Assembly: GCA_016782425.1 (NCBI GenBank)
Contig: JADHYN010000004.1
Location: 9,632 to 73,631, forward strand
Source of the DNA: Candidatus Omnitrophota bacterium
Lineage (GTDB): Bacteria > Omnitrophota > Gorgyraeia > JABMRN01 > RBG-13-46-9
Direction of reading: 5' to 3'
DNA: 64,000 nucleotides
Shown: in pieces, positions 5,635 through 60,991 of the stretch
Layout of the letters: the number at the start of each line of letters is the position of its first letter
Position numbering within the stretch: position 1 is the stretch's first letter
The notes under the pieces: generated by a model
The model's database searches: none
What the model was told of the DNA's origin: nothing
Seen by the model: only the letters and a program-made list of their open reading frames with translations
Translations under genes and position numbers: made by a program

Positions 5635-7245
5635 TTAGCCAAAACCAACACTAAGGAAATTTTTTAATTTCCGCGCTCGCGTAGGATGTCGCAGTTTTTT
5701 CAAGGCTTTTGCCTCTATCTGCCGCACCCTTTCCCTTGTTACGCTAAATATCGTACCCACTTCCTCAAGGGTTCTCGGGTAACCGTCTCCTATTCCGAAT
5801 CTCAATCGTAAAACTTTCTTTTCCCTTTCCGTAAGCGTGTCCAAGACCCCACCCATCTGTTCCTTAAGCATAGTGTAAGCCGTTGCATTGGCCGGCGAAA
5901 CGGCGCGTTTGTCCTCGATAAAATCTCCGAAATGGGTATCCCCTTCGTCGCCTATGGGTGTCTGCAAGCTTATGGGTTCCTGCGCGATTTTTAATATGGC
6001 GCGGACTTTATCAACAGGCATCCCCATCTCGTGGGCAAGTTCGTCGGGGGTAGGTTCTCTACCGGTTTCCTGCACCAACATCCTTGAAACCCGGATCAGC
6101 TTGTTAATCGTCTCGGTCATGTGTACAGGTATTCTTATCGTTCGCGACTGGTCTGCTATGGAACGGGTAATCGCTTGCCTGATCCACCAGGTTGCGTAAG
6201 TGGAAAACTTGTAACCGCGTTTATATTCAAACTTGTCAACGGCTTTCATGAGGCCAATATTGCCTTCCTGTATCAAATCCAGAAAAGACAGCCCTCTGTT
6301 GGTGTATTTCTTGGCGATGCTTACCACGAGCCGCAGGTTCGCGGCGACAAGCTCTCTCTTTGCTTTATTGAAATTGGTCTCTTTAATCCTTATCAGGCGG
6401 TATTGCTTCTTGATGCTGTTTAATTTATCTCCGAATCGGCGCTGGAGATTTTTAAGCTTTCGGCTCAATCTCTTTTTCTCTTTTCTTTTGTGACCCTTGA
6501 GCCTGGCCATGTTCCCTTCTGTCGCCTCGGCGCTTTCGAGAAATCCTCTGATCTTTTGGAAAATCTGCTCGATTATGCAAATCGCCAATTTTAGATCCAG
6601 CAAAACACCGACTATCTTGCTCTTTGCTTTTGTCCTTTTAAGCTTTTTAAGGAGTCTCAGAACTTTCCTTTTGGTTACATACTCTTTAGCCTTTGGGTCA
6701 ACATCTATAATTTCATCCAGGCTTACGTCTTTCTCAAATGCATTTTCCAGGATTTGTATCACGATGTCTTTTGCAATATTCGTCCATAAAACATTTTTTC
6801 TGAAAAGCTCTTCCGCCGTTTTTATCTTTTTGGCGAGGGTAATTTCTTGTTCTCTCGTCAGAAGCGAAATCTGGCCCATTTGCCTTAAGTACATCTTTAC
6901 CGGATCGTCTACCTGGGCAAGCCTGGCCGCCCTTTCCTCTTTTAAGACACCCTTTTTGGCATGTTGATCCTGCGGTAGCGCGTATTCCTCTTTCTCTTGG
7001 TCAATAAGCGCTATATTCTCCTTTTCAAGAACGTCCATGACCTGGTCGATTTCTTCGGAAGAAAACATATCGTCCGGAAGAATGCTATTTACCTGTTCAT
7101 AGGTGAGGTGGCCTTTTTCTTTCCCCAGGACAATCAGCTTGTCTATGACATTTCTTTTTGCGAACTTTTTCAGCTTCCGAGTCCTTTTTGGGGAACGCAC
7201 GCGCCTTTTAATGCGCTTTCTTCTCTTCAGCTTTTTCTTCTTCAC
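5635..7245 (-). CDS. rpoD: primary sigma factor RpoD (sigma70)
   Basis: Region 2 ([56 protein letters not shown]) and region 4.2 ([30 protein letters not shown]) are present. The GTG start overlaps the dnaG stop (GTGA). Confidence 0.95.
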
Positions 7246-10616: not shown

Positions 10617-10645
10617 AGTATATCATATAATTTTATCATTGTCAA
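10617..10645 (-). promoter_or_regulatory. sigma70-type promoter for cvpA, inside the 3' end of mtaB
   Basis: Minus strand reads TTGACA-17 nt-TATACT (-35 at 10640-10645, -10 at 10617-10622). Confidence 0.5.
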
Positions 10646-11927
10646 GGCAGCCAAAAACCGTCCCTTTCCCGCCATCCACGCCTGAGATCATAACCGCAAT
10701 CAGTCTGTTTTTAAGCGAATCGGCCCCGCCTAAAAGTACGCGAACATACCTGTCCGTGTACCCGGCAAGGAGTCCTGTTCTTTCGTCTCTATGCTCTTCG
10801 ACAATAACGTCTTGGACCTTCCCAACAAACGTCCTGGCAAAATCCGCCGAGAGTTTCCTGCTCAAATCGGTTAATGTCTTTACTCTTTTTTTAATCACTT
10901 GTTTACTCAGATCATCCGCATATCTGGCAGCAATGGTTCCTTTTCTTCTTGAGTATGAAAACACGTGCATTCGGGAAGGCTTTATGCTTTTTATAAATCT
11001 CAGCGTATTGCGGAATTGTCTTTCGTTCTCGCCCGGGAATCCCACAAGTACATCCGTCGTAATGGCTGCATCGGGAATTTGCTTTCTGATTTTTGCGATA
11101 ATCCGCTTGAAGTTTCTCGCTCTGTAGGGCCGTTTCATCAGTTTTAAAATTCTGTCATCACCCGACTGTAAGGGTACGTGCAGGTGTTTACACACCTTGC
11201 CCTCTTTAAGCACACTGATGATCCTCTCTGTAACATATATCGGTTCTACTGAACTAAGCCGAATTCTAAACGAGCCGTCGATCTGGCAGATCTTATTAAC
11301 AAGATCTGCTAAGTTTGTTTTAGTTTCAAGATCTTGCCCCCACGCACCGAGACAAACACCCGTTAAAACAACCTCTTTAAAACCACTGTCTACGAGATTT
11401 TTGATTTCTTGTAGAATTTCGGAAGTGCTTCTGCTCCGTGAAGACCCCCGCACAAGACTGACTTTACAATAAGAACACCTATGGTTGCAACCGTCCTGGA
11501 CTTTAATAAACGCCCTGTTATGATTTTTGAAACCTGTAATTTGCAATTTTGGATTTGGAATTTGTTTACACTTTGGTTTTAATATTTCCGCGAGTTTTCC
11601 TTTTTCGTTATTTCGTACCAGGTGCGTAACGCCGGAGATGTCCATAAGCTCTTTTCTGTCGGTATCCAATTCGGCGTAGCAGCCCGCTACCACGATTTTT
11701 CCGTTAGGATTAACTCTATGAAAACGATGTATCAGGTTACGCGTATCCCTGTCAGCCTTCTTGGTTACGGTACATGAATTAACAATGTAATAATCCGCAA
11801 CCTTGCCTTCTTTTTTTTCTACGAATCCGTTTTTGACGAGATGTTCCCGCATGGCCTGGGTTTCGTATTGATTGACCTTGCAACCGAGAGTTTTTATAAA
11901 AAAGGTTGGTTTATCGGGAAAACTCAT
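10623..11927 (-). CDS. mtaB: MiaB-like tRNA methylthiotransferase, probably MtaB
   Basis: UPF0004 N-domain (FFIKTLGCKVNQYE), radical SAM CNHRCSYC and a C-terminal TRAM-like region. Confidence 0.8.
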   Translation of the reverse strand: MSFPDKPTFFIKTLGCKVNQYETQAMREHLVKNGFVEKKEGKVADYYIVNSCTVTKKADRDTRNLIHRFHRVNPNGKIVVAGCYAELDTDRKELMDISGVTHLVRNNEKGKLAEILKPKCKQIPNPKLQITGFKNHNRAFIKVQDGCNHRCSYCKVSLVRGSSRSRSTSEILQEIKNLVDSGFKEVVLTGVCLGAWGQDLETKTNLADLVNKICQIDGSFRIRLSSVEPIYVTERIISVLKEGKVCKHLHVPLQSGDDRILKLMKRPYRARNFKRIIAKIRKQIPDAAITTDVLVGFPGENERQFRNTLRFIKSIKPSRMHVFSYSRRKGTIAARYADDLSKQVIKKRVKTLTDLSRKLSADFARTFVGKVQDVIVEEHRDERTGLLAGYTDRYVRVLLGGADSLKNRLIAVMISGVDGGKGTVFGCLDNDKII

Positions 11928-12642
11928 GGTTTAGAACCGAAAGGACATAAAGACCGGCGGTGTCGCTTTTTAGGACCCTCTTGCCGAGCGAGACAAGTTT
12001 GCAGTTTGTATTTTTTGCCATAACTATCTCCTCCGGCGTAAAATCTCCTTCGGGACCGATAAATACGATAATCTTCCCCAATTCAAAGCCTGGAAGAGCC
12101 ATTTTAAGTTCGATCGTTTCTTCCGAAAGGCAGGCCATGAGAGCAAGGTCAAAGTTATTTATGCCGTCTATGACATTATAAAATTTTTGGACATCGTTTA
12201 TTTCCGGGATATTTGTTCTGCCGCATTGCTTTGAGGTTTCGCGCGCTATGTTCCTCCATCTAGCTACCTTCTTCGAAACAGCGTTCTTCTCTAATCTCAC
12301 TATTGTCCTTTCGCTCAGGATGGGTATTATGTTCTCTACGCCGAGTTCGGTCGCCTTTTCCACGATGTAATCCATCTTCTCTTTTTTTGGCACGGCTTGC
12401 GCAAGTGTAATCTCGGGTGAGGATTCTCTCTTCGGTCGTTTTGTGCTGACGATTTCGACTACAAGCGACTTTGGAGTGGTTTCTTTTATGAAACCTTTGT
12501 ATTCCCTGCCGGTACCGTCAAAGACAACGACTTTGTCATTCTCCACAAGACGCATCGCTTTTAAAATATGCCTTGCCTCCTGGCCGTCTATATGGATTAG
12601 ATTATTTTTGATATTTTCAGGCGGAGCAAAAAACCTGGACAT
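11911..12642 (-). CDS. rsmE: 16S rRNA (uracil1498-N3)-methyltransferase
   Basis: MSRFFAPPENI..IDGQEARHILKAMRL N-terminus and a SPOUT C-terminal domain (IGPEGDFTPEE). Confidence 0.85.
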   Translation of the reverse strand: MSRFFAPPENIKNNLIHIDGQEARHILKAMRLVENDKVVVFDGTGREYKGFIKETTPKSLVVEIVSTKRPKRESSPEITLAQAVPKKEKMDYIVEKATELGVENIIPILSERTIVRLEKNAVSKKVARWRNIARETSKQCGRTNIPEINDVQKFYNVIDGINNFDLALMACLSEETIELKMALPGFELGKIIVFIGPEGDFTPEEIVMAKNTNCKLVSLGKRVLKSDTAGLYVLSVLNHEFSR

Positions 12643-12651
12643 AATTATTAC

Positions 12652-14202
12652 CTATTCTTCTTTTTCTCCGAACACCTCGGCTGTGAATATATAAATATCG
12701 CATTCGCCCTTTTTCCAGGCATCGGGTGACATACCTGCCTTGTCACCGCATAGCGAATTCATGAACTGCTCGCGGTTCCAGCCTGCTTCGGTAGCAACCT
12801 GCGGCAGATAAACGCCGCTGGTAAAACCTCTTCTCACGATAACTCCGTGCTTTCCCATTTCTATCACGTCAGGGTTATCGATTTTCTTAAGCGGAGATAG
12901 TGCTGAAATTTCAATGTCTATATCATCCATCTCGTTTAGTGTAACCTGCGGAAATCGCGGATCGCCGGTTGCCGCTTCCACCGCCATATCACGCACTGTC
13001 AGATAAAATGGGCCACGGCCTACGATGTTTCCGATGCAGCCTCGTAGCTGGCCGTGCTTGTGGAGCGTCACAAATCCGCCCATCTCAGCCAATAAGACAG
13101 GATCCGTTTCTTCAACCGGCAGGCGTTTTCTGTTTTTCAGGTAATGCATGATCGAATCCCGTGCCAGTTTCAGCATCTTTTTTCTTTGTACTTCGTTCAA
13201 CATATCATTATCTCCTTTTTCTGACTTTGGCATTTGGCGTTTCGGGCCTAGTTTTGATTTTTTCCGCCCGAGGCGGATCCGCCTTTGGCGGAGATTTTTT
13301 CCGCCCGAGGCGGAGATATTTGATTTAATTATGGCGGCACTTAAATACCCCACTACCCTCCTTTTATCCCAGGTAGTATCTCCTGAATTGGCGTACTTGA
13401 GGATTTCTATCTTGTCGGCTCCGAGTTTTTTGGTCGCGATCATGGTCGCGTACACTGCTCCGTAACCGCACATTAACTGGTGACCTGAAAGCGAACTTTC
13501 GGTGTATAATTTATCGGCATCAAATTCTTCTATTACGGAAATCGTTTTTCTATCCATGCTGTTCGCTTTCTTATACGGCAGGTAGTGCGACATGTCTGTG
13601 CTCGCAACAAGCAAAAAACTTTCTTTGTCTTTTAAGGTGTCGTATAAAGCTTTGCCCAGTATTTTGCAATTCTCCAAATTCTGATCGCCGATTGCGACGA
13701 GAACAATCTTGAAATCGTTTAAAACCGCCTGCAGAAACGGTATTTCCATTTCGATGGAATTTTCTCCCAGAAAAGCGAGGGGTTTGTCATAAATCTTCGG
13801 ATGCGCGGCGATCAGTTGTTCTGTGATTTTTTTATCGATTTCAACAACGCCAAGCGGCGTTTCAATGCCGTCTACATCAAGAACCGCTATGCCGTCATAA
13901 TTCCTTGTGTGGCTGAAGCCTACTACGACAACGGTCTTTATAGTTTGTTTACTGATAGCTTTAAAGCCATAGGCTGCAACGGGTCCCGAATAAACAAAAC
14001 CGGCATGCGGGGATATTATCGCGACAATTTCGCCGTCGATTGAGGGGGGTGTAGCTTTGGTAAGATATGATTGCAGTTCGGCGGTCAAACTTCTTTTTGA
14101 AGCAGAGTACCACCTTCCTGCCAGATCCGCCTTCTTCACTTCGCCCATCGCCGTTCCAGCAAGGAGTGTTGAGGTGATAAGACCGATTAAGATTTTTTTC
14201 AT
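12652..14202 (-). CDS. Memo-like (AmmeMemoRadiSam system protein B) fused in frame to AMMECR1 (protein A), with N-terminal signal peptide
   Basis: Residues after the signal peptide (AGRWYSASKRSL.., SPHAGFVYSG, STDMSHY) are Memo-like. The C-terminal 183 aa (MLKLARDSI..GCIG..GDPRFP..GVYLPQV) are AMMECR1. The track ORF start at 14271 reads through the tRNA, so the real start is taken as ATG 14202. An internal SD plus ATG sits at 13203. Confidence 0.8.
   Translation of the reverse strand: MKKILIGLITSTLLAGTAMGEVKKADLAGRWYSASKRSLTAELQSYLTKATPPSIDGEIVAIISPHAGFVYSGPVAAYGFKAISKQTIKTVVVVGFSHTRNYDGIAVLDVDGIETPLGVVEIDKKITEQLIAAHPKIYDKPLAFLGENSIEMEIPFLQAVLNDFKIVLVAIGDQNLENCKILGKALYDTLKDKESFLLVASTDMSHYLPYKKANSMDRKTISVIEEFDADKLYTESSLSGHQLMCGYGAVYATMIATKKLGADKIEILKYANSGDTTWDKRRVVGYLSAAIIKSNISASGGKNLRQRRIRLGRKKSKLGPKRQMPKSEKGDNDMLNEVQRKKMLKLARDSIMHYLKNRKRLPVEETDPVLLAEMGGFVTLHKHGQLRGCIGNIVGRGPFYLTVRDMAVEAATGDPRFPQVTLNEMDDIDIEISALSPLKKIDNPDVIEMGKHGVIVRRGFTSGVYLPQVATEAGWNREQFMNSLCGDKAGMSPDAWKKGECDIYIFTAEVFGEKEE
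13252..13327. repeat. GC-rich double/triple palindrome element (CCGCC-CGA-GGCGG / CCGCC-TTT-GGCGG / CCGCC-CGA-GGCGG), copy 1
   Basis: ttttgattttttCCGCCcgaGGCGGatCCGCCtttGGCGGagattttttCCGCCcgaGGCGGagatatttgattt. The 40-nt core recurs at 58484-58528. It lies in frame in the Memo-AMMECR1 linker. Confidence 0.85.
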
Positions 14203-14210
14203 AACTTGAT

Positions 14211-14286
14211 TGGTGGACTGGAGCGGAGTCGAACCGCCGACCTCCTCGTTGCGAACGAGGCGTTCTCCCAACTGAACTACCAGCCC
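14211..14286 (-). tRNA. tRNA-Ala (anticodon CGC), CCA encoded
   Basis: The 76 nt fold by hand as a 7-bp acceptor with G3:U70, a D arm GTTC/GAAC, anticodon stem CCTCG/CGAGG with loop TTCGCAA, and a T arm GGCGG-TTCGACT-CCGCT, ending in ACCA. Confidence 0.95.
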
Positions 14287-14406: not shown

Positions 14407-16368
14407 TTACGCACAGACCCTATTCTTCCCCTCGCGTTTGGCTTTATAGAGGGCCTCATCAGCTGCTTTGATAAGCTCGTGGCTTTTCATGCCTTCCCTG
14501 TAATCGGCAACGCCTATACTTACGGTAGTGCTAACGCGTATTTTATCTTTTTTTCCCGTATGAATTTTCTCCAGATGAGGTTCTACGGGATCCCGCCCAG
14601 GGCGGGAAAATTCTTCCTCGATTGTCCTTCTGATTCGTTCAGCAGCTACAAGTGCGTTTGCTTTATCGGTTTCGGGCATTAGAACGTCGAACTCCTCTCC
14701 GCCACACCTTCCGGCGATGTCTGCGGCTCTTATGTTCGATTTTATCAGGTACGCAATCTTTTTCAGCACTTCGTCGCCGACGGGGTGACCGAACGTATCG
14801 TTTATCTTCTTGAAATCGTCCACGTCGATAATAAGCAGGGAAAAGGGCCTTTGATATCTCTTGGATCTCTCTATCTCTTCTTGGATTCTTTTGTTAAAAT
14901 AATTTACTCTGTAAAGTTTTGTAAGGTCGTCTTCTATAGCGTGCGTGTAAAGCTTTGCATTGTCTATACACACACCTAGCTGTCTTCCGAACGCATTTAG
15001 TATATCTATGTCTTCCCTGCTGTAGGGTGAAGCGTCTTTCTTGTTGCCAACGTTTAAAAACGCAGCTATGTCTCTTTCGTGATATAGGGGGAAACTGAAA
15101 CAAAGTGGTATTGAGAGTCTCGCGTTAATTTTTTCAAGGACGCTATTTATCTCTTGCATATCGTAATCCTCGGCAAAATCTTCCTTTTCATTCACTACAT
15201 AGACGTTACCTTCCCTCAAAAATTTTACCAATGGGCTTTCGGCAGAAAGGTTTTTTACCTCCTGCATTTTTTTCTTGTCCAGCCCCTTCTCGGCGATCAA
15301 CACGAAGTTTGCGCTATCTTCGTCATATATGTAAAGTGCGGCGTTTTCTATACCTACAGTATCCACGAGAGATTCCAAAACATAATTCGAAAGGCTCGCC
15401 AAATCAGTTTCTCTGTTTGATATAGAGGCGAAGTTTTCCAGGAATTTGTAATAATCGAGCTTCTTCTCATAAACAATGCGGTCTGAGATTTTACCCAATC
15501 TTAACGTTCCCGAGAAATGTGCGATCAGCAAAAGGTTGAGTAAAACAATAACACCTGTAATAACCGAGGCGGCAAAATACTCGATACCCACCACCCTGTG
15601 CAATAGATGCACCAGGCCCATGTATACAAGTATGACAAAGACTGTAAAATAAGAGAAAACGACCGTTTTGTTGACAACTATGTCCACTTCCAAGACGTGA
15701 TATTTTACTATGGTATAGCCGGTTAAAGCTAAATAAGGGATGACGCAAAACAAACCGAAAGGAAAAACGTTTATCCTGTAGACCGAGAGAAGAAAGCCAA
15801 GCGGCGCGAATATCCCGAGAAGCATCCCCAAGAATAGCCACAGGCGCTGGTTTCGTTTAAAACGCAAATATAATTTTGAGGACCGCAGGAGGTAATAAAA
15901 CCCCGTAATCAAAAAGCCTGCGAATATAAAGGTAAAAATATTGAAAGCCAATCCCGGATTTATCGTATATTTGAAGTAGGTTCCGCTAGCGATGCCTTTT
16001 ATGAATTCTTTCGGCACGATGAAGGAGGCAATAAAAAACAGAAAGAATATAATGTAGATCGTGCTTAAAATCTGATTTTTAAATACTTTCCTGTCCGAGC
16101 AGGTAGCTAAAAAATGCAAGAATACCGGAACCAGAAAGATCACAGCAGCAAGTGATGCCCGAAACCAGTACATGGTAAGCAGTGGGTCCCCTGAAACGAG
16201 CGCACTATAAATGCAAAAGCTCCACAAAGAAAAGAGTATGTTGTAAACAAGCCACACCGCATTCTGCACTCTTCTTTTGCCTACAACGTAGACGTATGAC
16301 CCTGCGAGAAGCGCGGCTATCGCATTTGCGGCTGAAATTAACGGTAATGAATTTGACATCTCAATCAT
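14407..16368 (-). CDS. membrane-anchored diguanylate cyclase (multi-TM N-domain, GAF-like, GGDEF)
   Basis: About 8 TM helices, a GAF-like middle region and a C-terminal GGDEF domain with GGEEF and an RAAD I-site five residues upstream. Confidence 0.85.
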   Translation of the reverse strand: MIEMSNSLPLISAANAIAALLAGSYVYVVGKRRVQNAVWLVYNILFSLWSFCIYSALVSGDPLLTMYWFRASLAAVIFLVPVFLHFLATCSDRKVFKNQILSTIYIIFFLFFIASFIVPKEFIKGIASGTYFKYTINPGLAFNIFTFIFAGFLITGFYYLLRSSKLYLRFKRNQRLWLFLGMLLGIFAPLGFLLSVYRINVFPFGLFCVIPYLALTGYTIVKYHVLEVDIVVNKTVVFSYFTVFVILVYMGLVHLLHRVVGIEYFAASVITGVIVLLNLLLIAHFSGTLRLGKISDRIVYEKKLDYYKFLENFASISNRETDLASLSNYVLESLVDTVGIENAALYIYDEDSANFVLIAEKGLDKKKMQEVKNLSAESPLVKFLREGNVYVVNEKEDFAEDYDMQEINSVLEKINARLSIPLCFSFPLYHERDIAAFLNVGNKKDASPYSREDIDILNAFGRQLGVCIDNAKLYTHAIEDDLTKLYRVNYFNKRIQEEIERSKRYQRPFSLLIIDVDDFKKINDTFGHPVGDEVLKKIAYLIKSNIRAADIAGRCGGEEFDVLMPETDKANALVAAERIRRTIEEEFSRPGRDPVEPHLEKIHTGKKDKIRVSTTVSIGVADYREGMKSHELIKAADEALYKAKREGKNRVCA

Positions 16369-17997: not shown

Positions 17998-18043
17998 AGT
18001 TTACTTATTGCTACTTACAGCTTATAGCTTACAGCTTATGTAA
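17998..18043 (-). repeat. TAAGNNN heptad array beginning at the stop codon of the upstream gene
   Basis: Minus strand reads TAAGCTG TAAGCTA TAAGCTG TAAGTAG CAA TAAGTAA ACT, followed by GTG (HDAC start). Confidence 0.8.
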
Positions 18044-20533: not shown

Positions 20534-20827
20534 TTTTTCCTCCTTCAATGAGACCCACACTTATGAAAATCGAAGATTTTCGTAAGTGTGTCTTCCGTGA
20601 ATTTCTTCTGTGAATCCTGTTAGAAATATCTCATTTCTAACAGGGTGAAGGGTCGAATTGGACCCCCCCACCACTTTCTAAAATTACAATTTCTTGTTAC
20701 TAAAGGCTTTGTCTCTATTATGATGCACTATCACCACTTTTGTACATAGCATAGAAAGTGGTGGGGGGTAAATTCAGCCATATAACTTACGTCGCTTCGC
20801 TCCGTAAGTTATGGCTTCATTTACCTC
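20534..20827 (-). repeat. three-hairpin intergenic element, copy E1 (central module type B2, plus one extra hairpin)
   Basis: Fills the TPR-stop to exbB-start spacer. Hairpin A 20556-20590, extra hairpin 20616-20644, long hairpin B arms 20652-20680 / 20752-20779, hairpin C 20780-20813. The core is roughly nine-tenths identical (by eye) to 31326-31451. Confidence 0.85.
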
Positions 20828-31242: not shown

Positions 31243-31524
31243 CTTGCCTCCTTCGATGAGCATTGGACTTATGAAAATCTCTGATTTTTATAAGTCCATC
31301 TTCTATGAATTTCTCCTCCGAATGTGCGAATTGAACCCCCCACCACTTTCTAAAATTACAATTTCTTGTCATTAAAGGCTTTGTCTCTACCATAATACAT
31401 TATCACCATTTTTGTACATAGCATAGAAAGTGGTGGGGGGTAAATTCAGCCATACGACTTGCGTCTCTTGTAACCTGGAAATAAAAATTCCTAAACTATA
31501 TATAAACGCAAGTCGTGGCTTCAT
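31243..31524 (-). repeat. three-hairpin intergenic element, copy E2 (central module type B2)
   Basis: Fills the spacer from the MerR-like stop to the smc start. Hairpin A 31264-31298, hairpin B arms 31326-31352 / 31424-31451, hairpin C arms 31451-31463 / 31507-31518. Confidence 0.85.
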
Positions 31525-44504: not shown

Positions 44505-44647
44505 TTATTTCACCTCCTTCCGTCAATTCATTTTCTTAGAACTTCGACTTTGAACAGTCGAATTGAACCCTTGACATCTTTGATGTCAAGGGTAAGTTCA
44601 GCCATATGATTTATGGCAACTTCGGTTGCCATAAATCATGGCTTCAG
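44505..44647 (-). repeat. three-hairpin intergenic element, copy E3 (minimal, central module type B1)
   Basis: Fills the nadX-stop to 81-aa-start spacer. Hairpin B arms 44559-44577 / 44583-44601 (TTGACAT-ctttg-ATGTCAA), hairpin C 44602-44641, short A-like hairpin 44543-44562. Confidence 0.8.
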
Positions 44648-50479: not shown

Positions 50480-50890
50480 AATTTATCCCCCCTTCAATGA
50501 GCACGCAACTTATGGAACGAAATGAACATAAGTTGCTGTGCGAATTGAATCCTTGACATTTTGTTCCGAAACAGAATTTATTATTTTTTCAATAGTCTTC
50601 TTTCTTGTATTTCCATTTTTAAATTGTCTTTCCCGCATAAAAGCCTGTGCCCGCGAATTGAACTTTTCATAATAGATTAATTCGATAGGTCGTCTATGCT
50701 TCGTATACTTAACATGTCCACTTGAATGTTCGGCGAACCGTTCTTTTAAGCGATACGTATGGCCGTAATACTTTGTGCCATCGTTACATTTCAAGATATA
50801 AAAATAATAAGTTGTTTTCATAAGCAAAATGTCAAGGATCAAATTTGCGCTTATGATTTATGTCGCATAAATGCGGCTTAAATCATGCGC
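50480..50890 (-). mobile_element. three-hairpin intergenic element, copy E4, carrying a GIY-YIG ORF inside central hairpin B1 (candidate autonomous copy)
   Basis: Hairpin A 50502-50540, hairpin B arms 50541-50559 / 50829-50849 enclosing the ORF, hairpin C 50847-50890 (overlaps the last codons of dapF). 50491-50559 differs from 60834-60902 at 2 of 69 positions. Confidence 0.7.
50510..50821 (-). CDS. small stand-alone GIY-YIG nuclease-domain protein (YhbQ/UPF0213-like)
   Basis: MKTTYYFYILKCNDGTKYYGHTYRLKERFAEHSSG..ELIYYEKFNSRAQAFMRERQFKN carries the GIY/YIG, Arg and Glu/Asn motifs. Start set at ATG 50821; the track begins at an upstream TTG. Confidence 0.8.
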   Translation of the reverse strand: MKTTYYFYILKCNDGTKYYGHTYRLKERFAEHSSGHVKYTKHRRPIELIYYEKFNSRAQAFMRERQFKNGNTRKKTIEKIINSVSEQNVKDSIRTATYVHFVP

Positions 50891-52947: not shown

Positions 52948-54273
52948 TTACCTTTTTATCGAAATCCTCGATTTTACGGACACAAGCGGGTCGAGAAGTC
53001 TGGCTATTTCACTGTGTTTGAACTTATTTGAAAATTTCGCCAGTTCCGTGTCTTTCATGCCTTTTATTTTCCTACCTTTATCGAGTGAAAACTTTACAAG
53101 TTTCCCAATGATATCGTGCGCTCTCTTAAACGGGACTCCTTTTTTAATAAGATAATAAACGAGATCCGTTGCGTACAGCGCCTCATCCTCTTCTATTCTT
53201 TTTTTGATAACGCGCCTGTTCCACGCCAGCCTTTCTACGAGCTTCGCCAGAATCTGCAATTCTTGCGCAATTATCTCAAAGGAACTAAAAAGCGGAGGCT
53301 TGTCAAGCTGCATATCCCTGTTGTAACCGAGGGAGAGCCCTTTCATCATCGTCAAGACGCTTATCAAGTTACCGTTTAATGTCCCCGTGTAGCCCCTTAT
53401 AAGCTCCAGCACGTCCGGATTCTTCTTCTGCGGCATAAGGGAACTTCCGGTCGCAAAAGCATCGTCTAGTTCGACAAAGTTAAATTCCTTCGTCGACCAT
53501 ATAATGAGATCCTCGGCCAATCTCGAAAGATGCATCCCGAGAATCGATAGCATCGATAATATCTCAATGACAAAATCCCTGTCGCTAACCGTATCTATCG
53601 GATTTGTCGTCGGTTCTATTTTTATGCCCTTTGCCTCTTTTTTGTAAAGCTTTGCGTCGATTGGGGTTCCTGCCAGCGCTCCCGCGCCCAGCGTCAACTT
53701 CATACTGTTTTTTATATTCTCTAATCTCTTATTATCCCTTTCCAGCATCTCGATGAAACTACCAAGATAATCCGAAAGATACACAAGCTGCGCGTGCTGC
53801 AGGTGCGTGTAGCCGGGAATTATAATTCCCTTTGCCTTTTTGCATACAGTCTTTAAGGATTCCATAAGCGCAAGGGAGAGCCCCTGTATGTTATTCAACT
53901 CGGCGGCGCAGAAAAGTTTCAAATCGAAAAGTACCTGGTCGTTTCTTGATCGTGCCGTATGCAGTTTTAGCGCAAGACTTCCGAGTTCTTTTTCTATGGC
54001 ATTTTGAATATTCGTGTGGATATCCTCTGCCTTCCTGTCGATTGCGAATTTTTTCTTTTCGATCCGGTTGTATATCTTTTTAAGGGCGCTTCCGAGTTTT
54101 TCCGCTTCCTTGTTAGTAATGAGCGAACTCTTTTTCAATATCAAAACGTGCATTATGGATCCCAGGACATCGTATTTAGCAAGCTTATAATCGTAATCTA
54201 TGGATTTTGTAAATTCTTCGACAAGCGGATCTGTCTTTTTTTTAAATCTTCCGCCCCACATCTTCTTAGTCAT
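52948..54273 (-). CDS. argH: argininosuccinate lyase
   Basis: MWGGRFKK N-terminus and the GSSLMPQKKNPD signature. Confidence 0.95.
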   Translation of the reverse strand: MTKKMWGGRFKKKTDPLVEEFTKSIDYDYKLAKYDVLGSIMHVLILKKSSLITNKEAEKLGSALKKIYNRIEKKKFAIDRKAEDIHTNIQNAIEKELGSLALKLHTARSRNDQVLFDLKLFCAAELNNIQGLSLALMESLKTVCKKAKGIIIPGYTHLQHAQLVYLSDYLGSFIEMLERDNKRLENIKNSMKLTLGAGALAGTPIDAKLYKKEAKGIKIEPTTNPIDTVSDRDFVIEILSMLSILGMHLSRLAEDLIIWSTKEFNFVELDDAFATGSSLMPQKKNPDVLELIRGYTGTLNGNLISVLTMMKGLSLGYNRDMQLDKPPLFSSFEIIAQELQILAKLVERLAWNRRVIKKRIEEDEALYATDLVYYLIKKGVPFKRAHDIIGKLVKFSLDKGRKIKGMKDTELAKFSNKFKHSEIARLLDPLVSVKSRISIKR

Positions 54274-54310
54274 TTCTTCCTCCTGCTTATAGCTTATGGC
54301 TTAAAGCTTA
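54274..54310 (-). repeat. TAAGCNN heptad array beginning at the argG stop codon
   Basis: Minus strand reads TAAGCTT TAAGCCA TAAGCTA TAAGCAG GAGGAAGAA ATG(argH). Confidence 0.85.
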
Positions 54311-55486
54311 TCGCTTCTTCCTATATGGCAATCCCCAGAGTTCGATAAAACCTTTTGCCAGGGACTGGTCGAATTTGTCGCCCTTGCCATAGGTTGCAAG
54401 TTCTTCCTTATAAAGTGAATTCGGCGATTTTCTGCCGACCGCACTTGCTGTGCCCTTTAAGAGTTTCACATTCACAACGCCCTCTACGTTTCTTTGTGTA
54501 TGCTCTACGAATTTATCCAGTGCCTCCTTAAGGGGCGTATACCATAAGCCGTCATAGATGAGCCTCGAATATCTGAGGCTCACTATGTCTTTGAAGTAAA
54601 GGGTTTCCCTATCCAGCACCAGGCTTTCAAGCGCCTTGTGTGCTTCCAGAAGAATTTTGGCAGCTGGTGCCTCGTATACCTCTCTTGACTTGATTCCGAC
54701 CAGCCTATCTTCGATAAGGTCGGATCTGCCGATAGAATACCTGCCGCCTATTTCATTAAGCTTTTTTATAAGCGCTATTGCATTGAGTGTCTTGCCGTTT
54801 AGTTTTTTCGGAACCCCCTTTTTGAAATATATTTTTAAATAGCACGCCTTGTTGGGCGACTTTTCAATTGGCTTTGTAATCTGGAACACATCTTCCTTCG
54901 GCTCAAACCACGGGTCCTCTAGCTTGCCGCTTTCTATGCTTATGCCCCAGAGATTCTTGTCTAAGCTATAAGGCTTCTTTTTCGTAACATCTATGGGAAT
55001 TTTGTGAACCTTGGCGTATCTTATCTCGGCTTCCCTGGTCGGGAGATCCCACTCCCTTACAGGCGCTATCACCTTGAGTTTGGAATCCAAAGCGCCTATC
55101 GAAACCTCAAATCTTACCTGGTCATTACCCTTGCCTGTTGAGCCGTGAGCGACAAGCTTGGCGCCTTCGGTGTGAGCCACCTCTACAAGCTTCTTTGCAA
55201 TAAGAGGTCTTGAAAGGGCTGTCGCGAGGAGATACTTTGACTCGTAGACAGCGTTGGCCTTCAAGCTCGGCCAGATAAAATCCTCTACGAATTCCTTCTT
55301 CAAATTGCCTACTATGACCTTCGCTGCACCGGCTTTATGGGCTCTTTTCTTGGCAACTTGGAAATCCTGCCCCTGTCCTACGTCGGCCAAGAAGCATACA
55401 ACGCTAAAGCCTTTTTCTTTAAGCCATCTGACAGAGACCGATGTATCCAACCCTCCTGAATATGCCAGTATTATTTTTTTAGCCAT
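54308..55486 (-). CDS. argG: argininosuccinate synthase
   Basis: AYSGGLDTS and GSTGKGNDQVRFE motifs. Confidence 0.95.
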   Translation of the reverse strand: MAKKIILAYSGGLDTSVSVRWLKEKGFSVVCFLADVGQGQDFQVAKKRAHKAGAAKVIVGNLKKEFVEDFIWPSLKANAVYESKYLLATALSRPLIAKKLVEVAHTEGAKLVAHGSTGKGNDQVRFEVSIGALDSKLKVIAPVREWDLPTREAEIRYAKVHKIPIDVTKKKPYSLDKNLWGISIESGKLEDPWFEPKEDVFQITKPIEKSPNKACYLKIYFKKGVPKKLNGKTLNAIALIKKLNEIGGRYSIGRSDLIEDRLVGIKSREVYEAPAAKILLEAHKALESLVLDRETLYFKDIVSLRYSRLIYDGLWYTPLKEALDKFVEHTQRNVEGVVNVKLLKGTASAVGRKSPNSLYKEELATYGKGDKFDQSLAKGFIELWGLPYRKKR

Positions 55487-57592: not shown

Positions 57593-58479
57593 AAGCCTTC
57601 GGTTGCTTTCGTTTTTCTGCCCAATTTTATTATTTCGGTTCCTATTCCTTTATCTGTAAATATCTCGAGAAGTAAAGCGTGCGGTATATGACTATCAATT
57701 ATGTGCGATTTTCTTACCTTGCCCTCCAACGCCTTCGTGCACGCGTTCGTCTTCGGAATCATGCCTTCCGATATAATCTTTTTCTGCAACAACGTATCCA
57801 CATCGGCGAGGCTAAGCGAGCCATATAACGTGTCGAGATTCTCCTTTTCCTTCATTATACCTCTTACATTAGTAAGCACAAAAAGTTTCTCAGCCCGGAG
57901 CGCTATAGCAATCCTGCTTGCTGCTTCGTCTGCGTTTACGTTGTAAATCTCACCATCGCCTCCTGTGGCAACAGGTGAAACTACCGGAATAATATTCGTC
58001 TCTATCAGTCTTTCGAGAACCGTCGTATCTACATTCTCTACGGTTCCCGCAAAGCCTATATCTTCTTTTTTATGCTCTATTTTCTTTGCCAGAAGCAATT
58101 TATTTTCTTTGCCGCTCAAGCCAAATGCCTCTGCGCCCATCTTTTTGATTTCTTCAACAAGTATTCCGTTTAATTCCGTAAGGGCGTTATCCACTATTTC
58201 CATTGTCTTTTTGTCCGTTACTCTCAGGCCATCTATGAATCTGGGTTTTTTTCTCGCTTCCTTCATCTTCTCGCTTATGAACGGGCCGCCGCCGTGTACT
58301 AAAACCGGGTTCATCCCGGCGTAATTGAGGAAAACTATATCCTCGAGCACGCTGCGTCTTGCGTTTTCATTGGATAAGGCGGACCCGCCGAATTTAATTA
58401 CGAATATTTTATTGAAAAACTTTTTTATATAAGGCAGCGCCTCTATTAAAACATTACTCTTTTTTATCGCTTCTTCCAT
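57589..58479 (-). CDS. argB: acetylglutamate kinase
   Basis: LIEALPYIKKF..FVIKFGGSAL. The canonical N-terminus starts at ATG 58479. An alternative ATG at 58533 overlaps the argJ stop (ATGA) and would add 18 aa encoded by the palindromic repeat. Confidence 0.9.
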   Translation of the reverse strand: MEEAIKKSNVLIEALPYIKKFFNKIFVIKFGGSALSNENARRSVLEDIVFLNYAGMNPVLVHGGGPFISEKMKEARKKPRFIDGLRVTDKKTMEIVDNALTELNGILVEEIKKMGAEAFGLSGKENKLLLAKKIEHKKEDIGFAGTVENVDTTVLERLIETNIIPVVSPVATGGDGEIYNVNADEAASRIAIALRAEKLFVLTNVRGIMKEKENLDTLYGSLSLADVDTLLQKKIISEGMIPKTNACTKALEGKVRKSHIIDSHIPHALLLEIFTDKGIGTEIIKLGRKTKATEGL

Positions 58480-58483
58480 TGTT

Positions 58484-58528
58484 TTTTCCGCCCGAGGCGG
58501 ATCCGCCTTTGGCGGAGATTTTTGATTT
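58484..58528. repeat. GC-rich double palindrome element, copy 2
   Basis: ttttttCCGCCcgaGGCGGatCCGCCtttGGCGGagatttttgattt. The core is identical to 13262-13301. Confidence 0.85.
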
Positions 58529-58529
58529 T

Positions 58530-59723
58530 TCATGTCATATAGTGCGAATTTATTTCGACATAGCGCTTCGATAAATCGCACGTCCAGATTCTGGCATCCT
58601 TCTTGCCAGAATTCAGATTTACTGCTATTTCAACATTTTTTCTTTTATATATTTTGTAAAACTTCTCCTTTGAGGGCATGGTGAATTTCCCGCCTTTAAA
58701 AACACAAATACCGTCTAAGTAAATTTCGAACTTATTCTGTTTTATTCCCTCTGCGCCGCTTGAGCCGACCGTGGCAGCAACCCTTCCCCAGTTAGGGTTT
58801 TCGCCGTGTATGCTCGTCTTGACAAGACACGAATTCGCTACGGATCTGGCTACTCTATATGCATCCCTGGTTCTTTTGGCATTTTCGACATAAACGGACA
58901 CGAATTTTGTCGCTCCTTCGCCGTCTTCGACTATATTCTTGGCCAATTTAAAAGTCACGTTCTTTAAAGCCTTCGAGAACGCCTTATACTCTTTTGTCTT
59001 TCTCTTTATCGTCATGTTGTTCGCAAGACCGTTAGCCAAAAGGATAACCGTATCATTCGTACTCATGTCGCCGTCAATACTTATGGAATTAAAGGATCTG
59101 TCGCAGGCCTCTTTGAGGGCCACTTTAAGAGCGTCCTTATCTATCTTCGCGTCCGTTACTATGAAAGAAAGCATTGTCGCCATGTTCGGATGTATCATAC
59201 CCGCGCCTTTTACTATCCCGCTTATCGTGGCTTCCTTTCTGCCGATTTTAAATTTCTCGATCCCGACTTTGATCTTCTTATCGGTAGTCAATATGGCACT
59301 TGCTGCGCTTTTTAATCCCTTCTCGGAAAGGCTCTTCACCAGCTTGGGAATACCTTCTTCTATGAGATCTATGGGAAGCCTCTTGCCGATTATGCCGGTT
59401 GAGGAGACCTGCACATTGTTAAATTTCAGCTTCAGATTATCGCATACACCGCTTATCATTCTCTTGGCATCCCTTACCCCGTACCAGCCGGTGCAGCAAT
59501 TGGCGTTTCCGCTATTTATAATTATTGCCCTGATGGGTTTGCCTTTTTTTAAGATCGATTTTGAAACGATCAAAGGCGCAGCCCTAACCTTATTTTTTGT
59601 AAAAATTCCGACTGCCTTGCAGCCTGCCTTCGAATATATAAGGGCCAGGTCTTTTTTAAACCTTTTTATGCCGCAGTGTACACCGCTTGCCAGGAAACCC
59701 TTTGGTAGTATATATTTTCCCAT
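58530..59723 (-). CDS. argJ: bifunctional glutamate N-acetyltransferase / amino-acid acetyltransferase
   Basis: NSGNANCCTG and the autoprocessing site PNMATMLSF. Start set at ATG 59723 behind GGAGGT. Confidence 0.9.
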   Translation of the reverse strand: MGKYILPKGFLASGVHCGIKRFKKDLALIYSKAGCKAVGIFTKNKVRAAPLIVSKSILKKGKPIRAIIINSGNANCCTGWYGVRDAKRMISGVCDNLKLKFNNVQVSSTGIIGKRLPIDLIEEGIPKLVKSLSEKGLKSAASAILTTDKKIKVGIEKFKIGRKEATISGIVKGAGMIHPNMATMLSFIVTDAKIDKDALKVALKEACDRSFNSISIDGDMSTNDTVILLANGLANNMTIKRKTKEYKAFSKALKNVTFKLAKNIVEDGEGATKFVSVYVENAKRTRDAYRVARSVANSCLVKTSIHGENPNWGRVAATVGSSGAEGIKQNKFEIYLDGICVFKGGKFTMPSKEKFYKIYKRKNVEIAVNLNSGKKDARIWTCDLSKRYVEINSHYMT

Positions 59724-60824: not shown

Positions 60825-60991
60825 ATCTTCCTCCCTTCAATGAGCACGCAACTTATGGAACGAAGTGAACATAAGTTGCTGTGCGAATTGAACCCTTGAC
60901 ATTTTCGGAAATCTTCATATGGGAAATGTCAAGGGTATAATTCGACCACATAGTTTACGTCTGCCACCGGGCAGTCGTAAACTATGGCCTC
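60825..60991 (-). repeat. three-hairpin intergenic element, copy E5 (ORF-deleted derivative of E4; 5' leader of the arg operon)
   Basis: Hairpin A 60845-60883, hairpin B arms 60884-60902 / 60927-60945, hairpin C 60949-60986. It retains ATG AAG plus the last 19 codons of the GIY-YIG ORF in frame. Confidence 0.85.

Follow-up and report, generated by a model that had tools for sequence, protein, structure and literature searches.

The Rickettsia palindromic elements (RPEs) were reportedly described by Ogata and colleagues in 2000 as repeats of ∼100–150 bp restricted to Rickettsia. Yeast and fungal mitochondrial G+C clusters are GC-rich palindromes of 30–50 bp in an AT-richer genome, with several co-existing families; they stand solo or in tandem or nested arrays, occasionally in frame (var1), and probably spread in a conversion-like manner. 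Palindromic repeats in Fusarium mtDNA offer a further comparison (PMC7218506). In bacteria, REP, BIME and REPIN sequences are mobilized by RAYT Y1 transposases (PMC3116915, PMC3333891, PMC3733652), REPs being extragenic by definition and headed by GTAG or CGTC (PMC3733652), and miniature transposable elements with inverted repeats (MITEs) such as Correia/NEMIS and ERIC are non-autonomous interspersed repeats with inverted-repeat symmetry, some of them in genes (PMC3184786, PMC2229807). The 64,000-nt stretch of Omnitrophota DNA analyzed here (the window, to which all coordinates refer) carries two identical copies of a 30-nt twin hairpin, named E30, one in the linker of a Memo–AMMECR1 fusion gene and one in the argJ–argB spacer. 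E30 behaves like RPEs, REP/REPINs and mitochondrial GC clusters and yet departs from what defines each of them (size, host, head motif, extragenic location or target-site duplication). It represents an apparently undescribed family of 15/30-bp hairpin insertions, which in Patescibacteria, Omnitrophota and further uncultured lineages occupy operon spacers and housekeeping proteins.

Like RPEs, E30 has the character of a palindromic selfish repeat that stands in frame in essential genes, at tolerated surface or loop positions, and also between genes. Unlike RPEs, it is 30 bp long (15-bp units), consists of two independent 6-bp hairpins, spans many phyla and uses a nearly exclusive reading frame. 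Length and host (Omnitrophota, the Candidate Phyla Radiation [CPR] and others) set the two apart, their sequences not having been compared directly; the view of the initial annotation, that the element is analogous but unrelated to RPEs, agrees with in-frame palindromic insertions that are absent from orthologues and with an incompatible length and host. With REP and REPIN sequences E30 shares short (20–40 nt) GC-rich hairpins, often in inverted doublets, a high copy number, the lack of target duplication, the use of operon spacers and recognition by way of the hairpin. Its consensus, TT(T)T-CCGCC...GGCGG-A(A)AA, has neither GTAG nor CGTC, however; its units abut without a spacer, 35–46% of its copies lie deep in open reading frames (ORFs), the Memo–AMMECR1 copy included, and no RAYT is linked to it in a weak tblastn test of 1.8 Mb around copies. 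Mitochondrial G+C clusters differ in being organellar and in sequence, and ‘byp’ elements are skipped by the ribosome, whereas the frame bias of E30 implies translation. MITEs measure 50–500 bp and possess terminal inverted repeats and a fixed target-site duplication, unlike the 30-bp E30 with no duplication at coding sites. PARCELs resemble E30 as coding DNA with dyad symmetry, patchily distributed across distant microbes and attributed to horizontal gene transfer and intragenomic shuffling; they form long tandem arrays of a 25-residue unit, housed in dedicated ORFs of unknown function, whereas E30 is a solitary 10-codon insertion in unrelated housekeeping genes and spacers. No earlier description of the family was found in the literature covered (which excluded subscription journals), where only cloning primers and general REP, MITE and PARCEL papers surfaced. 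An Rfam search of the element with permissive thresholds, and of the whole window, likewise gave no family at gathering score for the element (best 22.8 bits against a gathering score of 49.5), the only match window-wide being tRNA.

The building unit is a 15-nt hairpin, TCCGCC-NNN-GGCGGA, with a 6-bp stem and a 3-nt loop. Three such units occur in a 66-nt block in the Memo–AMMECR1 linker, which reads on the + strand GATTTTT / TCCGCC-CGA-GGCGGA TCCGCC-TTT-GGCGGA / GATTTTT / TCCGCC-CGA-GGCGGA / GATATTT and on the coding strand N-I-(S-A-S-G-G)-K-N-L-(R-Q-R-R-I-R-L-G-R)-K-K-S. The element region of the minus-strand ORF 12652–14271 translates to ...ISASGGKNLRQRRIRLGRKK..., and NISASGGKNLRQRR is its linker peptide. 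In an alignment of 25 homologues, the extra NISASGGKNLRQRRIRLGRKKS occurs only in the window protein; in the DNA alignment, the block is a clean gap in the relatives L123 and L122. The core has 73% G+C in a window of 41–47%, the element region folded as RNA (coding strand) reaches −38.3 kcal/mol (z = −4.1 against shuffles), and the motif CCGCC-N3-GGCGG occurs 8 times in the window at ≤1 mismatch where 1.33 are expected, a number reached by none of 100 shuffles. The GC-rich palindromic sequence quoted in the initial annotation is indeed present at 13252–13326, in frame between the Memo and AMMECR1 parts of one ORF, as the domain matches agree, and TTGATTT stands on both sides of the element (13254–13260 and 13320–13326, exactly 66 nt apart). 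Some details needed revision. The exact repeat elsewhere in the window extends over 42 nt (13258–13299 = 58482–58523), the 40-nt core placed at 58484–58528 being slightly off, and freedom from stop codons in all six frames applies to the GC core, whereas the full interval contains a TGA (+ frame, in TTGATTT) and a TAA (− frame, at its end). This openness is a property of the stems together with the loops of the window copy, 175 of the 256 possible NNA/TNN loop combinations giving a stop in some frame.

The second copy reads, on its coding strand and with the flanking stop and start codons, TGA-AAAATC AAAAATC (E30) AAAAACA-ATG, and its RNA fold reaches −21.8 kcal/mol (z = −3.1). Because ArgB begins MEEAIKK in some sixty relatives, this copy is intergenic and not an N-terminal extension of ArgB. 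In three relatives (83–89% ArgB identity) the argJ–argB junction is TAA, 1–8 nt, ATG, while the spacer of the window measures 50 nt and consists entirely of heptamers and E30. This alignment marks the second copy, too, as inserted, here in the spacer of an operon. The possibility that the heptamers already stood in the target before E30 arrived was rejected for this copy, the junctions of the relatives lacking them.

Copies elsewhere lie in GyrB, ThrRS, SerRS, RecG, a ComM-like ATPase, TrmD, DnaG and other genes, and in several of them an empty site can be set beside an occupied one. The empty GyrB site of L246 reads GAA ATT TTC/AAG GAG, and the occupied sites of L174, L190 and L196 read ..TTC or TTT (TCC GCC AAA GGC GGA TCC GCC TCG GGC GGA) AAA GAT.. 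(the slash marks the point of insertion). The nearest GyrB relatives of a carrier (81–84% identity) read EIF/KDIKFDW, the sites of L247 and L248 hold decayed versions of the element, and among the best 120 proteins nearest one carrier only P0121, P0130, P0139 and P0183 also hold an insert there. When exactly 10 codons were deleted from 111 ORF-internal copies and other loci were searched with the result, gap-free junctions with element-free homologues were obtained for TrmD, SerRS, DnaG (including the window's own DnaG), TsaD, a T9SS C-terminal domain, an RluA-like protein and others. No target-site duplication was found at the GyrB empty/occupied pair or at at least 10 gap-free coding junctions. 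Of 110 copies, 64 follow directly on a Phe codon (TTT 46, TTC 18) and 68 directly precede a Lys codon (AAA 56). Since these Phe and Lys residues pre-exist in element-free homologues, TTY/AAR is a preference for certain targets and does not belong to the element itself. These sites show a precise entry of E30 into DNA, as a block of 30 bp (10 codons) that leaves the target unduplicated and falls preferentially between a T-rich and an A-rich codon.

The initial annotation supposed that the motif recurs in the genome; it does so on a far larger scale, at hundreds of loci in many uncultured bacterial phyla. The family core is TCCGCC-NNA-GGCGGA/TCCGCC-TNN-GGCGGA (30 nt). A scan of genomes (one per species), with a pattern that fixed only the stems and a few flank bases, returned at least 120 loci, and nearly every match listed has the form t-CCGCC-NNA-GGCGG-AT-CCGCC-TNN-GGCGG-a with unrelated flanks. 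Among the genome matches listed, 80 loci carry titles: ∼39 belong to Patescibacteria/CPR, 8 to Omnitrophota, 9 to other members of the Planctomycetes–Verrucomicrobia–Chlamydiae (PVC) group (Kiritimatiellae, Planctomycetes, Lentisphaerae, Verrucomicrobiota), 8 to ‘uncultured Gammaproteobacteria’ and 5 to Ignavibacteria or Bacteroidota, the remainder being singletons. The exact 28-mer of the window also occurs at at least 120 loci with unrelated flanks in metagenome contigs. There, with no flank imposed, the left side prefers T(0.70) T(0.90) t(0.68) T(0.96) and the right side A(0.99) a(0.67) A(0.90) A(0.70), with no conservation farther out. Viral contigs held 2 loci, and BLAST, which sees loops near the 10–16 commonest variants, found no match in PLSDB plasmids, INPHARED phages or 5,426 E. 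coli genomes; carriage by phages or plasmids was rejected on these grounds.

The reading frame is strongly constrained. With ≥60 open codons on both sides taken to mean deep in an ORF, 44 of 125 copies in the genome set and 61 of 132 in the metagenome set are so placed. The frame S-A-x-G-G-S-A-x-G-G is used by 41 of the 44 (p = 1e-16 against one third) and by 60 of the 61 (p = 1e-27 against one third). The Arg-rich frame of the window's E30 was met in only 1 of these 105 copies, 101 of which read S-A-x-G-G. This shows that inside genes essentially only copies encoding S-A-x-G-G-S-A-x-G-G persist, a small and flexible peptide found in loops, linkers and termini, where it is translated as extra loop residues.

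The structure that is preserved is a pair of short hairpins. The two halves of E30 are inverted repeats of each other and the loops vary freely. Thirty-nine variant copies, identified purely by sequence similarity, contain 24 double changes that restore pairing within the 15-nt unit (for example TCAGCC..GGCTGA, CCCGCC..GGCGGG and TCCCCC..GGGGGA) and 3 that do not, whereas a single long hairpin fits only 1 double change. When 89 sequences are aligned, 8 of the 12 pairs of the twin-hairpin model are changed on both sides (24 cells, not all independent events if recurrent variants such as CAGCC/GGCTG are subfamilies) and 98.2% of its cells are paired; none of 500 shuffles equals it on any measure. 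A long-hairpin model performs like the shuffles, its would-be loop–loop pairs being unpaired in about half of the sequences. A single long hairpin with a 3×3 internal loop, the minimum free energy fold of copy 2, was thus rejected in favor of two hairpins. The covariation shows stems whose pairing is upheld by compensatory change.

Copies also differ in their state of preservation. When the insert columns are left out, a neighbor-joining tree of the GyrB region places carriers here and there among non-carriers, two of the carriers being distant (0.25–0.29); such scatter implies repeated gain at one site, repeated precise loss or transfer of alleles. Decayed copies were found in L247, L248, P0139 and P0183. 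The E30 copies in the GyrB genes of L174, L190, L196 and L114 are identical at 29–30 of 30 positions, with flanking third codon positions only 43–60% identical (near saturation), although three of these four were ascertained by exact match. L248, the closest flank relative of L190 (84%), nevertheless retains only 20 of the 30 positions.

The reading we favor, and hold to be fairly probable, is that E30 is an interspersed, non-autonomous, selfish hairpin DNA element of very many uncultured bacteria and that the block in the window is its in-frame insertion. It is preferred because of the precise insertion, the unrelated loci and phyla, the patchiness and decay, the hairpin-preserving changes and the translational filter. 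Spread may proceed through a folded single-stranded (hairpin) or cruciform intermediate recognized in trans by some enzyme; this hairpin-dependent, duplication-free style would resemble the ‘peel and paste’ of HUH/Y1 systems (IS200/IS605, RAYT–REP). Perfect copies would be renewed by re-insertion or gene conversion while others decay. At the Memo–AMMECR1 locus, the insertion would merely lengthen the linker with a basic, Gly-rich stretch, and the rare Arg frame may be tolerated as the linker is disordered and AMMECR1 may also start from its own Shine–Dalgarno (SD) sequence and ATG.

Several observations weigh against this selfish-element reading. Y1-transposase-like ORFs are not enriched near copies (2 matches in 1.8 Mb by tblastn), in a test that is weak owing to its RAYT and IS608 TnpA queries and that covered windows of ≤14 kb around copies. 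That the stems are nearly identical from phylum to phylum does not sit easily with ordinary selfish spread unless an agent is shared. Depletion from ORF interiors is mild (in one set 35% of copies lie there and 62% of random sites, in the other set 46% and 51%), which is unexpected for random insertion followed by purifying selection and could mean frame-aware targeting or a benefit. The perfect GyrB 30-mer amid near-saturated flanks is suggestive of either renewal or functional constraint, and the second of these would speak against a purely selfish element. All matches come from metagenome-assembled genomes (MAGs) or metagenome contigs, and the hairpins of the window arrive together with heptamers, a composite that a simple E30 model leaves unexplained. 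Cross-phylum stem identity, weak gene depletion and perfect copies in saturated contexts leave room for a functional or drive-based reading. Separately, one IS200/IS605-type TnpA-like ORF (L058:3485–3889) lies ∼700 nt from an E30 (L058:2752–2779), a single case that is not significant in 1.8 Mb.

A bolder proposal, possible but rather doubtful, is that E30 is a cross-phylum, codon-compatible mobile hairpin that spreads horizontally among co-habiting ultra-small or uncultured bacteria and is kept perfect in essential genes such as gyrB, thrS and recG. Measuring exactly 10 codons, it would go in between Phe-like and Lys-like codons and be read as a flexible loop of Gly, Ser and Ala. It covers both dedicated machinery and an uptake- or conversion-based drive, with perfection maintained by ongoing renewal or by selection. 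If true, no in-frame mobile element known in bacteria would be smaller or more widely distributed than E30.

Selection for an RNA or DNA structural signal, whether an mRNA-stabilizing or processing hairpin at cistron junctions (a role that REPs play in operons), an inter-domain translational pause site or the binding site of a conserved protein, is unlikely to account for the family. The compensatory stem changes would fit such a signal, as would a 30-mer that stays identical between orthologous sites in GyrB, ThrRS and RecG although the flanks are saturated, the lack of strong depletion from genes and the position of the window copies just ahead of a real or internal start codon (by 7 nt for the ATG of argB, by ∼50 nt for that of AMMECR1). 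However, intrastrand template switching in quasi-palindromes can yield compensatory changes mechanically, without selection, and the copies sit in unrelated genes and positions, are patchy among close orthologues and in some cases clearly decayed, with freely varying loops and no matching Rfam family. Intrinsic terminators are not indicated either: terminator-like matches are confined to the + strand, which is antisense to each of the two host genes in the window, and the family consensus 3′ of the hairpins has, on either strand, an A-run and no T-run, leaving no sense-strand U-tract.

Less probable still is a drive of the kind associated with the Haemophilus uptake signal sequence (USS) and the Neisseria DNA uptake sequence (DUS), in which motif-bearing alleles spread by transformation and homologous recombination. 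Identical insertions at one orthologous site in diverged lineages with non-monophyletic carriers would be its natural outcome; a strong reading-frame preference in genes has a reported parallel in USS, and copies abound in CPR bacteria, organisms reliant on DNA uptake. The uptake sequences known so far, however, owe their origin mainly to point mutation and not to 30-bp insertions, and their specificity is lineage-restricted, whereas the E30 motif spans phyla.

That the peptide itself is what is selected, with SAxGGSAxGG serving as a flexible linker and the palindrome incidental, is improbable in the extreme. The single frame of 101 of 105 ORF-internal copies and their location in loops, linkers and termini would suit it, but more than half of all copies are not deep in an ORF and show the same DNA and flank preference, synonymous stem positions are fixed while the x residues vary, and the Memo–AMMECR1 copy is read in a different frame.

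The initial annotation had proposed that separate, adjacent Memo and AMMECR1 genes became fused when this stop-free palindrome replaced a stop-containing spacer. The proposal drew on the SD (AAGGAG) and ATG at 13203 that the AMMECR1 domain retains, both of which are present, and on the stop-free GC core; the location of copy 2 at a true cistron junction (argJ/argB) would also suit it. It is now scarcely tenable. The best 120 homologues, from Candidatus Omnitrophota, are all single ORFs of ∼483–540 aa with both Pfam domains, and the closest of them (72–78% identity) have linkers of 11–22 aa without the palindrome, for example AAFVRD-TEKGDNNML; because palindrome-free relatives are already fused, fusion by the element is refuted. 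The SD and ATG are likewise conserved across the element-free fused genes. The Memo–AMMECR1 fusion is, on the homologues compared, ancestral, and the element lengthened a disordered linker without creating the fusion. This removes a tempting story of gene fusion by a repeat and leaves the linker as a tolerant landing zone. A sequencing, assembly or adapter artefact, to which the exclusively metagenomic origin of the matches, the BamHI site at the center of the element and its absence from E. coli genomes, plasmids and phages might point, is hardly credible in view of the frame bias, the decayed and compensated variants, the conserved orthologous positions, the many independent projects and assemblers and the presence of the Memo–AMMECR1 protein in two assemblies.

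Table 1. Positions of the hairpin elements, associated repeats and surrounding genes in the window.
Feature	Coordinates	Strand	Remarks
Inserted block, 66 nt (22 codons)	13256–13321	−	Encodes NISASGGKNLRQRRIRLGRKKS (residues 295–316); absent from the linkers of the closest fused homologues
E30 twin hairpin, TCCGCC-CGA-GGCGGA/TCCGCC-TTT-GGCGGA	13263–13292		Two abutting mirror units; rare Arg-rich frame (RQRRIRLGR)
E15 solo hairpin, TCCGCC-CGA-GGCGGA	13300–13314		Read S-A-S-G-G, the common frame
Heptamer GATTTTT (coding strand AAAAATC)	13256–13262		Further copies at 13293–13299 and, as GATATTT, 13315–13321
Second E30, identical to the first	58487–58516		Intergenic; argJ stop 58530–58532, argB start 58477–58479
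argJ–argB spacer, new relative to relatives	58480–58530		Coding strand AAAAATC AAAAATC (E30) AAAAACA; alignment with L249, L250 and L251
Possible decayed C-G-closed variant, TCCCGCC-CAG-GGCGGGA, then TCCCG...	14591–14607		Tentative; in a GGDEF gene
Memo–AMMECR1 (AmmeMemoRadiSam B–A) fusion gene	12652–14202	−	516 aa from ATG 14202; Pfam and NCBIfam matches
Internal SD AAGGAG (13212–13217) and ATG (13203–13201)	13201–13217	−	Opens the AMMECR1 domain
tRNA-Ala(CGC) gene	14211–14286	−	Immediately upstream of the fusion gene
RsmE-like methyltransferase; UPF0004 + Radical_SAM (MiaB-like) protein	10626–12642	−	Neighbors of the fusion gene
TAAGCNN heptamer arrays (3–5 copies)	18001–18038, 54273–54316, 61531–61574		Genes on the − strand
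Leader-like repeat (∼80–260 nt, 74–96% identity)	20536–20797 vs 31244–31469; 50486–50562 vs 60829–60905; 44559–44580		Directly upstream of several operons, e.g. argC

The host gene is well defined (Table 1). In the mechanical ORF 12652–14271 (−), Memo covers residues 48–312 (E = 2e-64) and AMMECR1 residues 367–534 (E = 2e-53); TIGR04336 (protein B, Memo; 261.8 bits) and TIGR04335 (protein A, AMMECR1; 170.3 bits) both exceed their cut-offs. Because the first 23 codons of this 539-aa ORF (TTG at 14271) cross the tRNA-Ala gene, translating through the tRNA (...VGGSTPL...), the true start of the protein is ATG 14202, which gives the same length as the NCBI model from the same MAG. The best protein match comes from a Candidatus Omnitrophota MAG, and the same protein is also present in an ENA assembly. 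An AlphaFold2 model built from the homologue alignment has two confident domains (mean predicted local distance difference test [pLDDT] 83.5) joined by an unstructured segment at residues 296–332 (pLDDT ∼22–25), which in the 516-aa protein overlaps the insert. The AMMECR1 start signal is kept as G[DE]xxM (..GGAGA..ATG) in nearly all fused Omnitrophota homologues, the remaining linker being variable. This conservation suggests that internal initiation of AMMECR1 within the fusion gene is plausible and would not be caused by the element. No obvious AmmeMemoRadiSam radical-SAM partner adjoins the gene, the MiaB-like neighbor not having been scored against TIGR04337. The window as a whole is a housekeeping region (arg operon, nadA, panC, dapA, smc, dnaG, rpoD), with no transposase evident in a Pfam scan of 59 ORFs (top 25 families). 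The candidate decayed hairpin lies in the GGDEF gene 14410–16368 (−), where it is read F-S-R-P-G-R-D-P; a C-G closing pair is known in the family.

The heptamers accompany only a minority of copies. A 7-nt direct repeat abuts E30 in 17 of 256 copies (∼7%, against 2.6 expected), and perfect tandem continuity across the E30 junction occurs only at period 7. In these cases, E30 lies within short arrays of degenerate A/T-rich heptamers (AAAAATC, GAAAATT, AAAAGTC). Target-site duplication was rejected as a general account of TTGATTT or of the 7-nt repeat, which abuts only ∼7% of copies, always in heptamer arrays, and is absent at coding sites; TTGATTT in the window belongs to such an array. The arrangement of unit, 7 nt and unit seen in the window recurs in L066 and L117; in the latter (L117:495–597 and 2453–2511) up to five hairpin units follow a 22-nt period, a 15-nt unit plus the 7-nt spacer TCTTCGA/G.

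Another family of GC hairpins, CCTGCC(T/C)G(C/T)C(C)GGCAGG(CAGG), was observed at 16 sites in 1.8 Mb of loci and is nested in the second unit of E30 in two unrelated genomes (L016:958 and L221:1992). One member, at L122:2147–2163, occupies the same Memo–AMMECR1 linker position beside AAAATCC heptamers; its interpretation as a diverged E15 was rejected, as it belongs to this CCTGCC..GGCAGG family. Since a second hairpin family sits at the same position, the Memo–AMMECR1 linker is a repeated landing site for small GC hairpins. In a Kiritimatiellae MAG (L006:4569–4752 and 6390–6572; also in L003 and L046), E30 stands near one end of a ∼185-nt multi-copy repeat, and E30 can be a component of larger repeats.

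Two further repeats occur in the window (Table 1). The TAAGCNN arrays fill spacers between co-directional genes, just upstream of the SD and ATG, and, 7 not being a multiple of 3, the repeat stops all three frames. The leader-like repeat combines a hairpin in its interior (...GCAACTTATG...CATAAGTTGC...) with a TTGACA-like box and an SD, and has no Rfam match at gathering score.

For the carrier groups, recurrent and homoplastic 10-residue SAxGGSAxGG indels affect gene calling, alignment and phylogenomics. The copies of E30 form a natural map of insertion-tolerant sites in essential proteins, and they raise the question, a mechanistic one, of which agent puts a fixed 30-mer into TTY/AAR sites across phyla and leaves the target unduplicated. 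E30 is, moreover, a compact marker for tracing DNA exchange among unculturable organisms.

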